Assembly (NCBI GenBank): GCA_963804085.1
Contig: CAWDOQ010000010.1
Span: 128,001 to 192,000 of the forward strand
Length of the DNA: 64,000 nucleotides
Direction of reading: 5' to 3'
DNA from: Chlamydiia bacterium
GTDB taxonomy: Bacteria; Chlamydiota; Chlamydiia; Chlamydiales; Rhabdochlamydiaceae
Shown: positions 29,085 to 51,551 of the stretch, piece by piece
How the letters are laid out: each line of letters starts with the position of its first letter
How positions within the stretch are numbered: the stretch's first letter is position 1
Notes under the pieces: generated by a model
Databases searched by the model: none
What the model was told of the DNA's origin: nothing
The model's input: only the letters and a program-made list of their open reading frames with translations
Position numbers and translations under genes: made by a program

Positions 29085-29158
29085 CTCTTAATACGTGCCC
29101 GTGCCCGTGCCCGCGTGCGTGCCCGATCCGGATTAATTCGGGCACGGGCACGGTAGAG
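29085..29158. repeat. hexamer-repeat hairpin, family H copy 1
   Basis: (GTGCCC)n arms around GATCCGGATTAATTC core. Confidence 0.8.
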
Positions 29159-29198
29159 AATTTTTGCTATGTAAAGCTATAAAAGTTATTATGCGGCC

Positions 29199-29696
29199 AT
29201 GAACGATGAGATTATTCTTGGAATTGATCCGGGCACGCGGATTACCGGTTATGGGGTGATCCAGCGGGAGGGCAGTGGGTATAAGCTGCTCGATTTTGGG
29301 TGTATCCGGCCGCCGGTGGATCTTCCTATCGCAGAGCGTTATCTTGCGATCTTCGATGGAGTTGAGCATCTGATCCAGCGCTTTGGGCCTCAGGCGATCT
29401 CGGTCGAGACGCAATTTATGTATAAAAATGCGCAGAGTGCGATGAAGATCGGTATGGCAAGAGGTGCCGTTTTGCTTGCGGGCGCGCGGCGCAAAATTCC
29501 GATCTTTGAATATGCGCCAAAAAAAGCTAAGATGGCAGTCGTTGGAAATGGAGGAGCGAGTAAAATGCAGGTGCAGCGCATGATCCAAGTGCTTCTCAAG
29601 CTCTCCTCCTTACCCGAGCCCGAAGATGCGGCAGATGCGCTTGCGCTCGCTCTTTGCCATGCGCACGCAAACCCTATTTTTCAGAAAAGGAGATAA
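29199..29696 (+). CDS. ruvC: Holliday junction resolvase
   Basis: ILGIDPG..ITGYG, EDAADALA. Confidence 0.97.
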   Translation: MNDEIILGIDPGTRITGYGVIQREGSGYKLLDFGCIRPPVDLPIAERYLAIFDGVEHLIQRFGPQAISVETQFMYKNAQSAMKIGMARGAVLLAGARRKIPIFEYAPKKAKMAVVGNGGASKMQVQRMIQVLLKLSSLPEPEDAADALALALCHAHANPIFQKRR

Positions 29697-29699
29697 CCG

Positions 29700-30281
29700 A
29701 TGTGGGAATATATCAAAGGGATTTTAACCGAAGCCTCCCCTGCAAAAGCAGTCGTTGAGATTCAGGGAATCGGCTACCAGCTGCACATCCCTCTTAGCAC
29801 TTATGGCAAGCTGCCCCAGATAGGGAAAGAGGTCCTCTTTTATATCGCCTCCGTGATCCGCGAAGATTCGCATCGCAACTACGGCTTTCTTGTACGCCAA
29901 GAGCGGGATCTTTTTGAAAAGTTTTGCGAGATATCGGGCATCGGACCTAAAACCTCTTTAGGACTTGTCGGTCATATGGAAGTGGGAGATCTACAGCGCT
30001 GCATCGCGCAAGGCAACGTCGCACTCCTTTGCAAAGTCCCCGGCATTGGCAAAAAGACGGCTGAGAGGCTGATGATCGAGTTGAAAGACAAGATCAAAAT
30101 AACAACCGGCAGCTCTTCCACTTTTGGTGAAGGGGGCAAAATCTCCGATGCGATCTCAGCACTCATCAACCTAGGCTATCCCGCAGCACGCGCAGACAAA
30201 GCGATTCAGACGGCTCTTAGCAAGAGTCAAACAGAACCCCCACTCGCAGAACTCATCACACAAGCTTTAAGGCATATATGA
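29700..30281 (+). CDS. ruvA: Holliday junction branch migration protein
   Basis: GIGPKT, VPGIGKKTAERL, ALINLGY. Confidence 0.97.
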   Translation: MWEYIKGILTEASPAKAVVEIQGIGYQLHIPLSTYGKLPQIGKEVLFYIASVIREDSHRNYGFLVRQERDLFEKFCEISGIGPKTSLGLVGHMEVGDLQRCIAQGNVALLCKVPGIGKKTAERLMIELKDKIKITTGSSSTFGEGGKISDAISALINLGYPAARADKAIQTALSKSQTEPPLAELITQALRHI

Positions 30282-30751
30282 AACTATTTACTTTTCTCGT
30301 CGCTCTTTTATTTGCCGTTCAACTGCATGCAGAGGAGTCGGACACGCTCGTCTTTTTAAAGCCCGATGCTTATGAAAAACACATCTGGGGACCTGTCCTC
30401 TCTGAATTTGAAAAGAAGGGGATAAAGATCGTCGCCCTTCAGATGACGCAGCTTACTCAAGAGCAAGCTGAGACTTTTTATGCCGCCCACAAAGGGAAAA
30501 AATTTTTTAACGATCTTGTTTCCTATATAACACGCGCTCCTATTTTGGCCGTTGTCTTAAGAACGGAGAACGCAGTGCCACGTGTACGAGCTATTTTGGG
30601 TGCAACCAACCCCAAAGAGGCCGCGAAAGACACCATTAGGGCTAAATATGGCCAGTCGCTCGATGCCAACGTGATCCATGGCTCCGATAGCCCCGAGGCT
30701 GCTGCAAGAGAGATCAGCTTCTTTTTTGCTAAGATGAATCTGTTAGGTTAA
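30278..30751 (+). CDS. ndk: nucleoside diphosphate kinase with N-terminal signal peptide
   Basis: LKPDA, GATNP, NVIHGSDS. Confidence 0.92.
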   Translation: MKLFTFLVALLFAVQLHAEESDTLVFLKPDAYEKHIWGPVLSEFEKKGIKIVALQMTQLTQEQAETFYAAHKGKKFFNDLVSYITRAPILAVVLRTENAVPRVRAILGATNPKEAAKDTIRAKYGQSLDANVIHGSDSPEAAAREISFFFAKMNLLG

Positions 30752-30777
30752 CGCTTTTTCGGGTATGCTATTTCCCT

Positions 30778-49481: not shown

Positions 49482-49685
49482 AGAGGTCTAATAGACATGT
49501 CGGGGGCTGAGGGGAGCACTTCGTGTCGGTGCCATACTTAAAGAGTGCATCCTTCTTGTATGGAGTGCGGCGACTTGTCGCCGCTTTTTTCTGACGCGAC
49601 TTGTCGCGGCATAATTTGAAGAAAGAGCAGCGACAAGTCGCTGTCTAACAAAGCGGCGACAAGTCGCCGCACTCCATACAAGAAG
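49482..49685. repeat. family B terminal remnant plus REP doublet family C copy 2
   Basis: ATAGACATGTCGGGGG end; perfect 36-bp inverted repeat 49552-49587 / 49650-49685. Confidence 0.82.
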
Positions 49686-49689
49686 TATG

Positions 49690-50424
49690 TTAAATGTAGT
49701 ATTTTCCCATCTCGGCAATCATCTTTGCAAGAGACGGAGGCAGCTCCTTACACACTTCCGAAACCATTTGTTCAGCTACTGCTACTTTTCCCTCTTCGTA
49801 AGCAATCATCTGATCAATGTCTGCCTTTGTTCCGACATCTTGTGTGTCGTGAAACATAAGCATTCTCGGAAAAAGCTCCGTTAGATAATGAGGTTTTGGG
49901 TTTATTACAACCTGCACAAAGAAGTTCCTCGGTTCTCCCTCATATCTTTCTTTTATTCTGTAAGCAAGCTCGATAGGGGTAGCTGATGTAACCATGTCAG
50001 AAGGAGGATTGCTGGCAAGCATGGGATCGGCTCTCCATTCACGTAATGTCTTGTAGGCTAAAAAGGAACCAGAAATCACAGCGCAATGAAGAGGAGTAAA
50101 ACCCCACTTATTGACTACGTTAGGATCTGCGCCCTGTCGCAATAGATCATCGGTCCGATTGGAATTTGCTTTGGTGAAACGGGGATTTGCCATCTTGTGA
50201 AGTAAGTAGTCTTTTTCGATGTACTTTTTAAACGTTTCATCGTCTGTCCAACAACAAAGCCAACTGGCACACCAAGTAAAGACTGGTTTGACATAATTTT
50301 CGATGAGGAGACAAAAGGCATCCCAGATGGTTTGCACACGCTGGACGATGTAGCTGCAGCAGGATAGCTCGGGAATAGCGGCTGCTACCGGAGGAGTTAA
50401 TGTGACAGATTGGACAGCGGACAT
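49690..50424 (-). CDS. short ankyrin-repeat protein, paralog 2
   Basis: GADPNVVNKWGFTPLHCAV. Confidence 0.8.
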   Translation of the reverse strand: MSAVQSVTLTPPVAAAIPELSCCSYIVQRVQTIWDAFCLLIENYVKPVFTWCASWLCCWTDDETFKKYIEKDYLLHKMANPRFTKANSNRTDDLLRQGADPNVVNKWGFTPLHCAVISGSFLAYKTLREWRADPMLASNPPSDMVTSATPIELAYRIKERYEGEPRNFFVQVVINPKPHYLTELFPRMLMFHDTQDVGTKADIDQMIAYEEGKVAVAEQMVSEVCKELPPSLAKMIAEMGKYYI

Positions 50425-50441
50425 GTTTTCTCTTTAAACCG

Positions 50442-51347
50442 TTAGATGTAGTATTTTCCCATCTCGGCAATCATCTTTGCAAGAGACGGAGGAACTCCAC
50501 AAACTTCACCAACTATTGGCGCAGCTTTTTCTACCATCTCTTTTTGGTATCCCTCTTCGTAAGCAATCATTTGATTAATGTCGGCCTTTGTTCCGACTTC
50601 ATCATTCTTGCCGGGCGCCATTAGATTTTCCGGAAAAAGCTCTCGTAGAAAATATCGGCCTCCATTCATGACAAGGCTCCAAAAATTGATATGAACTTCA
50701 AACTCAGATTCTTTTATTTTATACGCAAGTTCGATAGGGGTGCCGGGTTCAAAAGAGTCAAAATCAACACGCCTCTTGGCGGCGAGCGTAGGATCGGCTC
50801 CGAGACCGCGCAATGTCTTGTAGGCTAAAAAGGAGCCAGAAAGGACAGCGCAATGAAGAGGAGTATAACCATACTCATTTACTGCATTTGGATTTGCGCC
50901 CAAGCGGATCAGATCTTCGGTCGCATTGGAATCCGCCTTGGCGTAGCGGGGATTTGCCATCATGTGAAGCGCATAGTTTTTGTCTGCCCACTTACCAAAC
51001 TTTTCTGTTTGTGATCGAATCCTCAAATTTCTCAAATCGTTGCAGAAATCCAAATAGGAGGGCATCTCAGAACCATTCTGCTTGCGCACTCCTATGAGCG
51101 TCATCATGTAAGGATCACGCTTTTCAATCGGCTCAGCCCGTGCTACGGGAGCAGCGGGAGCAGTGGGAGCGGAACTAAACCAACTGACACACCAGGTAAA
51201 GGCTGGTTTGACATAATCTGTGATGAGGAGACAAAAGGCATTCCAGATCGCTTGTACGCGCTCGCTGATGCAGGTGCAGCAGGATTGGACGGTTTCAGTG
51301 ACGATTGTAGCCGCATGCATAGTATATAATTGCACAGTTTGCGCCAT
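50442..51347 (-). CDS. short ankyrin-repeat protein, paralog 1
   Basis: GANPNAVNEYGYTPLHCAV; AGGGAGA RBS before ATG at 51347. Confidence 0.8.
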   Translation of the reverse strand: MAQTVQLYTMHAATIVTETVQSCCTCISERVQAIWNAFCLLITDYVKPAFTWCVSWFSSAPTAPAAPVARAEPIEKRDPYMMTLIGVRKQNGSEMPSYLDFCNDLRNLRIRSQTEKFGKWADKNYALHMMANPRYAKADSNATEDLIRLGANPNAVNEYGYTPLHCAVLSGSFLAYKTLRGLGADPTLAAKRRVDFDSFEPGTPIELAYKIKESEFEVHINFWSLVMNGGRYFLRELFPENLMAPGKNDEVGTKADINQMIAYEEGYQKEMVEKAAPIVGEVCGVPPSLAKMIAEMGKYYI

Positions 51348-51472
51348 AAATATCTCCCTATTTAAATGTGGTAAAATTTTATCATTAATGAGGCTAAATA
51401 GCAAATACTAGTATAAATTAGCATTAAAGATTTTACTTGTTTAGAAAGCGTGTATCTTTAGTCCCCTCTTAC

Positions 51473-51551
51473 ACGCGCCCGCTTCCGCGCCCGCATGCGC
51501 GCCCGATCCGGATTAATTCGGGTACGCACGCGGGCGCGGAAGCGGGCGCGT
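51473..51551. repeat. hexamer-repeat hairpin, family H copy 2 (may act as pepP terminator)
   Basis: 34-bp stem around TCCGGATTAAT; same core as 29085-29158. Confidence 0.82.

Follow-up and report, generated by a model that had tools for sequence, protein, structure and literature searches.

A 64-kb window of the genome of an uncultured environmental chlamydia (the window being the whole stretch of DNA analysed here) contains two short hairpins with arms built of GC-rich hexamers and no gene, together with a longer hairpin of similar build that encloses a gene for a four-helix-bundle protein. What are the gene-less hairpins, and did they precede the gene or lose it? A first-pass annotation of the sequence had placed all three in one family of landing sites that gain or lose a gene at a GATT/AAT junction. 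Judged from sequence comparison, the two hairpins resemble reduced versions of a mobile cassette.

Hairpins and cassette in the window

Both hairpins are real, and neither stands out within its repeat family, which numbers about 155 GC-rich palindromes located between genes. Hairpin 1 (29093–29153, no strand assigned) has A-type arms and lies between the divergent starts of waaF (27976–29031, minus strand) and ruvC (29199–29696, plus strand), with a left arm at 29095–29124, a loop at 29125–29139 and a truncated right arm at 29140–29153. Hairpin 2 (51473–51551, no strand assigned) has B-type arms (left 51473–51504, right 51520–51551) around a loop at 51505–51519; the stop codon of pepP (51562–52623, minus strand) is 10 nt away, and the hairpin lies upstream of an ankyrin-repeat gene (50442–51404, minus strand). 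Several features read by the first-pass annotation were borne out: CTCTTA precedes each hairpin (29085–29090 and 51466–51471), each left arm comprises five hexamers (GTGCCC three times, GCGTGC and GTGCCC at 29095–29124; GCGCCC, GCTTCC, GCGCCC, GCATGC and GCGCCC at 51475–51504), and the loop, GATCCGGATTAATTC, is identical in both, with two matches in the window versus 0.10 expected. Its claim that the arms of hairpin 2 remain self-complementary holds as well: the DNA folds into a 36-bp stem with 2 mismatches (−46.6 kcal/mol, z −8.8; equalled by 0 of 200 shuffles) from arms of 34 nt that are 91% complementary. Hairpin 1 needs a correction, since its right arm is only GGGCACGGGCACGG; about 8 bp pair in register, and a slipped stem of 15 bp gives the best fold (−22.6 kcal/mol, z −3.9; equalled by 1 of 200 shuffles). 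Taken together with GATC, the left arm of hairpin 1 (34 nt in all) recurs without a change in arms at all 8 loci fetched from genus G005, which overlap in two locus pairs and represent 6 distinct places.

The loaded cassette (32160–32726, plus strand) lies between mnmE (30778–32151) and nth (32732–33370) and has stems at 32160–32214 (left) and 32673–32726 (right). It carries a gene encoding a 126-aa four-helix-bundle protein (32294–32674, plus strand; 23S_rRNA_IVP / TIGR02436, PF05635, E 3.1e-19), the stop codon of which overlaps the start of the right stem. The layout of its five hexamers and flanking sequences is as previously described, except that the first unit is shortened: four clean hexamers and this shortened unit are followed by GCCCC-TTCCTGATT ... 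AATCAGGAA-GGGC. Terminal inverted repeats form a long stem around the PF05635 open reading frame (ORF) in the cassette, and a stem without an ORF in hairpins 1 and 2; all three elements sit between protein genes.

A genome-wide family of hexamer-arm palindromes

The 2.13-Mb assembly, assigned to Chlamydiota, holds about 155 elements with (GYGCCC)-type hexamer arms, together occupying 15,513 nt (0.73%), and arrays of at least 3 hexamers number 253 genome-wide versus 0 in a shuffled genome. The elements comprise 98 paired forms, 23 with a short partner and 34 solo arms. Among the paired elements, 63 have loops of at most 30 nt, 29 have loops of 31–120 nt and 6 have longer ones; the 31–120-nt class bridges the short and the gene-carrying forms, and 17 of these 29 long loops include a purine or pyrimidine tract of at least 12 nt, resembling the inner ends of the cassettes. 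The arms constitute an oriented, sequence-conserved module, CTTTC-(GTGCCC)n-GYGTGC-GTGCCC-GATC, that falls into two subfamilies, and arms of mixed subfamily occur in 9 of the 98 paired elements.

Three lines of evidence support the earlier claim that the hairpins and the loaded cassette form one family. All four full PF05635 genes in the genome lie inside hexamer-arm hairpins. The arm of the B-type cassette is identical (24/24) to those of 32 gene-less copies (23 short and 9 long-loop), the subfamily of hairpin 2 included. Finally, a half-arm profile HMM trained on 62 other short hairpins, chosen because a covariance model cannot span a 500-nt loop, found exactly six arms in the 64-kb window, those of the cassette at E 0.008 and 0.24, and none in a shuffled window. 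The proposed GATT/AAT insertion junction is not supported. Of the 63 short loops, 38 end in GATC and AATTC; of the 29 long loops, 12 have GATC at either end; and the cargo boundaries are not uniform across the four cassettes.

A 21-mer around the loop has 59 matches in this genome at no more than 1 mismatch (reversed control, 0), versus none in 30 relatives of other genera and none in genome and metagenome collections that may leave out this genome's own records. Such counts suggest that the family spread recently.

Orthologous sites in relatives

The window cassette was inserted at a junction that is tight in relatives: the spacer between mnmE and nth is at most 16 nt long and hairpin-free in 25 of 28 syntenic relatives, which speaks against the idea of a pre-existing landing site that gained a gene there. 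A soil contig about 94% identical to the window, the one contig that bridges the cassette site (three soil DNA runs cover small shares of the window), has 63 letters in place of 560 (window 32151–32710). A presence/absence difference between close strains is likely, and the alignment ends are consistent with an empty hairpin within the 63 letters. A query of the metagenome collection with the Nth protein returned no close relative, the best match being 77% identical.

The orthologous waaF–ruvC spacers, which the first-pass annotation had singled out as places where relatives might carry cargo, could be compared in 22 relatives and contained neither a hexamer hairpin nor cargo; across other genera, a hexamer hairpin was found at neither the waaF–ruvC nor the mnmE–nth site. 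A soil joint near hairpin 2 (45538/51568) was rejected as an orthologous junction, as it runs into another repeat family.

Arms and gene in related genera and other phyla

Hexamer-arm hairpins carrying a PF05635 gene occur in four related genera, where the cassettes occupy other sites (after rnc, after serS and after a GT9 gene). With these loaded hairpins, and with the half-arm profile matching the cassette arms, neither objection that the first-pass annotation foresaw to a single family (no cargo in any relative; a hairpin model that misses the cassette arms) was encountered. More widely, flanking inverted repeats scoring at least 20 were present at 38 of 72 loci of gene relatives (control maximum 11) within a search span of ±300 nt, which missed the ends of 1080-nt units in one metagenome-assembled genome (MAG); 29 of the 38 were hexamer-phased. 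The records concerned are labelled Chlamydiota, Verrucomicrobiota, Gammaproteobacteria and Myxococcales, and the loci checked, in related genera and other phyla, were all outside rRNA, 20 loci of gene relatives outside Chlamydiota among them. Arm polarity is shared by gene-less and loaded forms: in genera G005 and G013 gene-less hairpins have the G-rich arm 5', as in their own cassettes, and in G000 the C-rich arm is 5' in cassettes and gene-less copies alike.

Arms also occur where the gene does not. Gene-less hexamer arrays were found in 6 of 25 relatives lacking a PF05635 match (the reversed pattern being unusable as a control here, because a periodic pattern when reversed matches the same arrays), and genus G036 has a dense palindrome family, with 7 copies in 34.7 kb and no PF05635 gene. 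The protein is therefore unnecessary for persistence of the repeats and may be unnecessary for their spread. The G036 palindromes lie in the same two spacers as those of G000, a coincidence that could be due to chance at 7 copies per 34.7 kb.

These distributions bear on the order of events. If the hairpins were landing sites, empty hairpins would have come first and the four-helix gene, or another hairpin, would have inserted into their loops. Nesting of this kind does occur: an A-type arm has a B-type hairpin within its loop side (C19:115388), two hexamer hairpins enclose a second palindromic repeat (C8:30680-31008 and C16:21961-22405), and in genus G001 the gene is surrounded by three to four layers of arms, one inside another. 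We nevertheless judge the landing-site account quite unlikely, given that the only armless free gene seen is a broken copy (L014), that relatives are hairpin-free at the cassette site, that distant phyla have the arms and the gene in combination, and that cargo boundaries do not fall at a single junction.

Genomic position and orientation

The elements are concentrated near gene ends. Of the 155, 111 do not overlap crude ORFs, even though 88% of the genome is coding; their median distance is 19 nt from a stop codon versus 74 nt from a start, and 80 of the 111 lie within 30 nt of a stop. This placement, the very stable stems, and the cutting by RNase III of rRNA relatives of the hairpins, as described in PMC4990558, are what would be expected of regulatory elements of the host (terminators, sites of processing, or stabilisers of RNA 3' ends) selected at gene ends and not, or no longer, mobile. 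Other properties make such a role unlikely. Neither strand has the T-run after the stem that marks an intrinsic terminator; the flanks are 5' T/C-rich and 3' A/G-rich on both strands, the reverse of a terminator. Loops are oriented with the gene in 22 cases and against it in 24, which is no bias, and elements between divergent genes (36 of 153) are not below the background of 17%. Mismatches on the sense strand of the arms show no preference for G-U (46) over A-C (40), so nothing points to selection on an RNA stem. Moreover, 34 elements are solo arms, and other genera do without a hairpin at the orthologous sites described above.

Candidate transposases

The hairpins could be classical miniature elements (MITEs) of an IS5-like DDE (DDE_Tnp_4) insertion sequence with hexamer arrays in its ends. 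One Chlamydiota MAG (23 loci) contains a unit of this description, about 1080 nt long, with terminal inverted repeats of 58 nt, made up of hexamers and 26 bases outside them, enclosing a decayed DDE_Tnp_4 gene (E 1.9e-5) and a PF05635 gene, and 3-nt direct repeats mark the ends of 4 of its 7 copies with both ends present. In the genome studied here, however, the DDE_Tnp_4 profile has 0 matches, the outer 25-nt end of the MAG unit has 0 copies at up to 5 mismatches, and the only DDE_Tnp_1 element has unrelated ends. Target duplication is also at chance level: among 90 elements, direct repeats numbered 16 versus 14.1 expected at 2 nt, 1 versus 5.0 at 3 nt and 3 versus 2.2 at 4 nt, whereas inverted end matches were enriched at 2 nt (29 versus 14.3 expected). 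We therefore regard a MITE origin as decidedly improbable.

An absence of target duplication is itself typical of Y1-type elements, and the hairpins might instead be REP/REPIN-type repeats moved as single-stranded hairpin DNA by the genome's single Y1 (RAYT/IS200-like) transposase, the four-helix gene being an incidental passenger. The one PF01797 gene in the genome (C17:57812-58264, 95 bits) has a degenerate hexamer hairpin directly to its right, but the inverted repeats that bound it are different ones of its own and make up a distinct family, with about 10 copies arranged as inverted pairs. Given also that loop orientation has no replication-strand bias (51 versus 37) and that the PF05635 gene is accompanied by hexamer arms in several phyla, we consider this explanation very unlikely. 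None of the Y1, TnpB-like or DDE_Tnp_1 genes of the genome is bounded by hexamer arms, and no autonomous transposase partner with the same ends was found, the longer forms encoding PF05635 only.

Relation to known systems

The gene-carrying cassette resembles the ORF-bearing intervening sequences (IVSs) of 23S rRNA in Coxiella burnetii and Leptospira (S23p ORF), which have a PF05635/TIGR02436 ORF in the loop of a long stem and an AG-rich tract beside the stem; PMC4990558 gives a 28-bp stem and AGAAGA for the Coxiella IVS. Unlike IVSs, the elements in this genome lie between protein-coding genes, outside rRNA, have arms composed of hexamers in periodic arrays, with a sequence that different taxa share, and include about 150 gene-less copies. 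Alignment of this genome's 23S rRNA gene to the Rfam model gives three pieces, of 2065, 601 and 87 nt, separated by contig gaps of only 4 and 20 nt, and the gene thus holds no large insert. Excision by RNase III is a feature of the 23S rRNA IVSs and would apply here by analogy only.

As short GC-rich intergenic palindromes present in many copies near gene ends, without target duplication, the hairpins also resemble REP/REPIN sequences, but the resident RAYT is flanked by another repeat (about 10 copies) and the hexamer hairpins are tied to a four-helix-bundle gene. With bacterial MITEs they share inverted ends, little or no interior, a presumed internal deletion from a gene-carrying form and recent subfamily bursts; they differ in lacking target duplication and in that, in this genome, the longer form encodes no transposase that can be recognised. 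Only in one distant MAG do the arms contain a DDE_Tnp_4 gene, which is decayed. Avd, the accessory protein of diversity-generating retroelements, belongs to the same Pfam family, has a four-helix-bundle fold and acts on nucleic acid together with a polymerase. The likeness goes no further than the protein family. There are no template or variable repeats here, and a search of the assembly for a reverse transcriptase (PF00078) found none.

Proposed origin of the gene-less hairpins

We think it probable, though well short of certain, that the hairpins are gene-less members of an amplified family of IVS-like cassettes, which enter the genome, lose their gene and multiply as non-autonomous palindromes. 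Family membership, shared arms, intermediate forms, intergenic position near stop codons and the co-occurrence of arms and gene across genera and phyla are the observations beneath this proposal. The full-length form would be a PF05635 four-helix-bundle gene enclosed by inverted GYGCCC-type hexamer arrays and entering as a unit. Internal deletion would leave long-loop and finally 75-nt forms, and the latter would multiply without target duplication and without a transposase visible in the assembly, while recombination between inverted arms may flip loops and yield chimeras and solo arms. The hairpin-free mnmE–nth junction of relatives and the co-occurrence of arms and gene across phyla fit movement as a unit followed by gene loss. 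As the short loop could not be derived from cassette-internal sequence, we infer the direction, from cassette to empty hairpin rather than the reverse, from distribution.

The leading guess for what acts in trans on the arm module is the protein encoded by the cassette itself, aided by replication or repair functions of the host. Where transcribed, the 30–36-bp stems would, by analogy with the intervening sequences of rRNA, serve as substrates of the RNase III type. Queries with PF14622, PF00636 and a G013 protein found no RNase III in this 91%-complete assembly, which is probably an assembly gap, since its usual neighbour radA is also missing.

A broader proposal, which we offer tentatively and with considerable doubt, is that IVS-type hairpin cassettes constitute a distinct and widespread class of mobile element, of which the 23S insertions are the best-known landing places. 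A ring-forming protein of their own would recognise CTTTC-(GTGCCC)n-GATC and promote duplication-free insertion, the approximately 150 gene-less copies having been moved in trans. An intermediate may be circular or inside-out, as suggested by genera that differ by circular permutation of the same modules.

PMC4990558 treats as open questions how rRNA intervening sequences arose and move, and what the proteins of the very large four-helix-bundle family do. Among the papers searched, none described these hexamer arms, or forms derived from such cassettes by loss of the gene. The family accounts for about 0.7% of this genome's sequence and for many of its intergenic spacers. It presents the IVS design outside rRNA, with a clear insertion, a likely strain difference, base-level conservation of arms across genera and a gene-less burst without a visible transposase. 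The arm module and loop provide concrete substrates, and the cassette protein a candidate factor, for assays of binding and mobility.

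Hexamer hairpins and a loaded cassette in the window

The window carries three elements built from inverted arrays of GYGCCC-type hexamers (arms), in an assembly (G000) of 2.13 Mb in 24 contigs with ~47% GC, of which 88% is coding. Hairpin 1 (29093-29153) is flanked by waaF and ruvC, whose starts point away from each other, hairpin 2 (51473-51551) lies 10 nt past the pepP stop, and the loaded cassette (32160-32726), between mnmE and nth, encloses a 126-aa gene of the four-helix-bundle (23S IVS protein) family PF05635/TIGR02436. Both hairpins are present as the first-pass annotation described them, with one correction: in hairpin 1 a left arm of five hexamers faces a right arm truncated to GGGCACGGGCACGG. 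Hairpin 2 has five hexamers per arm. Their loop, GATCCGGATTAATTC, is the same letter for letter. The predicted fold of hairpin 2 is a stem of 36 bp, mismatched at two positions (z -8.8); hairpin 1 pairs only by slippage, giving a 15-bp stem (z -3.9).

The waaF-ruvC spacer (29031-29199; loci L152-L180) also holds a motif, AAAATACCAAG followed after about 8-10 nt by GATTTTGTACA, which is kept across many genera of the family and is probably a promoter or operator common to the divergent genes. Directly upstream of hairpin 2 (49690-51404) are two tandem, partly duplicated ankyrin-repeat genes, for which related soil contigs give little or no cover.

A genome-wide hairpin family tied to the PF05635 gene

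A strict hexamer pattern recovered 253 arm arrays in G000, versus none in a shuffled copy. These arrays form 155 elements (98 with two full arms, 23 with a short partner and 34 solo arms), which total 15,513 nt, or 0.73% of the assembly. Among the 98 paired elements, the loop is at most 30 nt long in 63 and 31-120 nt in 29, and six hold 275-523 nt inside; the 63 short loops include 22 that read exactly GATCCGGATTAATTC and 10 that read its reverse complement. Arms are either GTGCCC-rich and variable (A-type, including hairpin 1) or very uniform (B-type, GCGCCCGCTTCCGCGCCCGCATGCGCGCCC, including hairpin 2), and in nine of the 98 an A-type arm is paired with a B-type arm. Watson-Crick pairs occupy 2290 of 2574 arm positions, with 24 of the 98 elements perfect.

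Four of the six PF05635 matches in G000 are strong (69-84 bits), and these coincide exactly with four of the six long-loop elements: the window cassette (32160-32726), C10:17477-18059, and the near-identical C7:6786-7201 and C19:343641-344055, the last frameshifted at the 3' end of its gene. The other two (C8:30680-31008 and C16:21961-22405) have no ORF and contain a nested second palindromic repeat. This nested repeat reads GAATTCAACGCAAAG..GAGACGC ... GCGTCTC..CTTTGCGTTGAATTC, and pieces of it adjoin several solo arms.

One cassette is of B type, and its arm is identical at 24 of 24 positions to arms of 23 short-loop and nine long-loop elements. A half-arm profile trained on 62 short hairpins, with the window's own two left out, placed its six best matches in the 64-kb window on the six arms (the hairpin arms had E values of 8.6e-8 to 0.021, the two arms of the window cassette 0.008 and 0.24) and matched nothing in the shuffled window. 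The earlier proposal that the hairpins and the loaded cassette form one family is thus supported by the four strong genes lying inside hexamer hairpins, by the arm identity and by the profile. Among the 29 elements with loops of 31-120 nt, 12 have GATC at both loop ends, and a purine or pyrimidine tract at least 12 nt long persists in 17, as at the inner cassette ends; these loops look like intermediates between cassette and short hairpin. We were unable to trace the short loop itself back to cassette sequence.

In the four-helix ORFs of loci L009, L010, L011 and L017 the translation frame meets no stop ahead of the arm and runs through it to give tails of (Gly-Thr)n or (Val-Pro)n, the arm being free of stops in this frame because its period is 6 nt. 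The weak PF05635 matches (35-36 bits) belong to a longer protein (G000:C7:1487-2338, or L021 913-1764, and C19:346295-346501), a different branch of the family; its neighbour, read by eye, is a putative nucleotidyltransferase.

Insertion sites

Of 29 relatives examined, 28 have mnmE next to nth, and in 25 of these 28 the spacer is at most 16 nt, often with overlapping stop and start, compared to 580 nt in G000. In a soil run, one contig of 7.6 kb matches the window at about 93-95% identity and covers 32000-32150 and 32711-36124; 63 other letters replace the 560 between 32150 and 32711, and the alignment resumes within the last unit of the cassette's right arm. Judged from the alignment ends rather than from the 63 letters, this joint is what an empty hairpin would give. 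Of 29 relatives, 22 retain the waaF-ruvC spacer, the site of hairpin 1, and none of the 22 has a hexamer hairpin there. The hairpins had been proposed as landing sites, with a gene entering a pre-existing hairpin at a GATT/AAT junction; our data do not support this direction, nor the junction as a specific insertion point.

Other palindromic repeat families lie at 39800-40250, 44900-45535, 49548-49689, 25522-25707 and 40893-41076 and account for the many joints between soil contigs and the window. They include a composite element whose ends are of the ATAGACATGTCGGGG type, similar to an element in the relative G013, as well as a perfect inverted repeat of 36 bp and a pair of the AGAGCCAATTGC type.

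Distribution among relatives

The 21-mer of the short loop has 59 matches in G000; it matches none of 30 relatives, which belong to other genera, and it found no match in two public collections (genome and metagenome contigs), from which G000's own records are possibly absent. Hexamer arrays are more widespread, occurring in 11 of the 30 relatives: all five whose PF05635 match passes the cut-off (G001, G005, G006, G010 and G013) and six of the 25 without. Inverted arms surround the PF05635 gene in four of the five, at differing genomic sites, and the fifth relative's copy is broken and bare of arms. Gene-less hairpins also occur in G005 and G013. G005 shows a burst, with 184 pattern matches (five of six loci read are complete gene-less hairpins and one is a solo arm), and G013 has 64 (three of five are complete hairpins and two are solo arms). 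The order in both is GATC, G-rich arm, GAAAG, loop, CTTTC, C-rich arm, GATC, and their empty hairpins share it with their own cassettes; it is reversed relative to G000, where the C-rich arm comes first in cassettes and empties alike. Both layouts use the same oriented modules, and one is a circular permutation of the other. The left arm of hairpin 1 with its GATC (34 nt) recurs letter for letter in all eight G005 loci fetched, which represent six distinct places.

In another relative, G036, an unrelated palindrome family with CTCTGTGG-type periodic arms (seven copies in 34.7 kb) occupies both the waaF-ruvC and the mnmE-nth spacers, which may be coincidence at that density. On G036:C18 (L181, L182) this family has periodic CTCTGTG-type arms with pyrimidine/purine flanks and falls into two subfamilies; G036 has no PF05635 match.

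From 463 relatives of the protein reported in the genome collection, 80 loci were taken, 72 of them with enough flank. Flanking inverted repeats scoring at least 20 within 300 nt were found at 38 of the 72 (maximum in a reverse-not-complement control, 11) and were hexamer-phased at 29 of the 38. By record label, such repeats occurred at 24 of 29 Chlamydiota loci, three of four from Verrucomicrobiota (two on contigs over 2 Mb), four of six from Gammaproteobacteria (Coxiellaceae, Legionella) and one of three from Myxococcales/delta, with the arm syntax GTGCCC-GTGTGC/GCGTGC-GTGCCC in common. The 20 loci with labels other than Chlamydiota, several of them from unclassified MAGs, all lie outside rRNA genes. 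A single MAG supplies 23 of the 80 loci. Its unit, ~1080 nt long, is bounded by terminal repeats of 58 nt, made up of 26 outer bases and hexamers, and encloses the four-helix gene together with a decayed DDE_Tnp_4 gene (E 1.9e-5); 3-nt direct repeats border four of the seven copies with both ends present. In G000 there is no copy of this unit's outer end, no DDE_Tnp_4 and no such direct repeat.

Placement and symmetry

In G000, 111 of the 155 elements are clear of crude ORFs, and many of the remaining overlaps involve ORFs made by stop-free arms or the cassette genes themselves. Elements lie a median of 19 nt from a stop codon (at most 30 nt in 80 of 111), versus 74 nt from a start. The left arm is adjoined by a C in 93 of 98 elements and the right arm by a G in 94 of 98; farther out, flanks are T/C-rich on the left and A/G-rich on the right, with complementarity between partner flanks above chance at the next two positions only. 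We found no target duplication at the G000 elements and no T-run beside the stem. Loop orientation was unbiased with respect to gene direction (22 with, 24 against) and GC skew (51 against 37), and sense-strand arm mismatches showed no excess of G-U over A-C (46 against 40). These placement, flank, orientation and mismatch results point to DNA-level palindromes rather than selected RNA structure. Transcription through the elements must nevertheless yield long stems.

Candidate movers and the origin of the hairpins

No gene other than the four-helix-bundle gene is consistently linked to the arms. A Y1 transposase gene occurs once in G000, with its own distinct flanking repeat family of about 10 copies; the assembly also contains one TnpB-like gene and a DDE_Tnp_1 element in two copies, whose ends are unrelated to the hexamer arms, and no reverse transcriptase was found in it. 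The Y1 (RAYT-like) gene lies within G000:C17:57640-58430; its flanking repeats occur in inverted pairs, and on either side of the insertion is a direct repeat that takes in the end of a hexamer arm.

The available part of PMC4990558 describes a Coxiella IVS that has an S23p ORF, an AG-rich tract and a 28-bp terminal stem and is excised by RNase III. It regards the origin of elements of this kind as unclear and cites an old suggestion that the four-helix protein aids the mobility of rRNA intervening sequences. We infer that this protein may aid mobility here. Neither RNase III (rnc) nor radA, which are neighbours in G013, was found in the G000 assembly by tblastn; since the usual neighbour radA is also missing, we read the absence of rnc as probably an assembly gap or unassembled region. 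PF05635 genes have been reported scattered in rRNA insertions of CPR bacteria in one paper and between cas genes in another, and the available parts of both describe no flanking hairpins. Supplements aside, literature searches by family names, chlamydial palindromic repeats and arm sequence returned no description of these arms or their gene-less derivatives. The best reading of our data is that the hairpins are gene-less derivatives of an IVS-like cassette, which would have multiplied in G000 without leaving target duplications.
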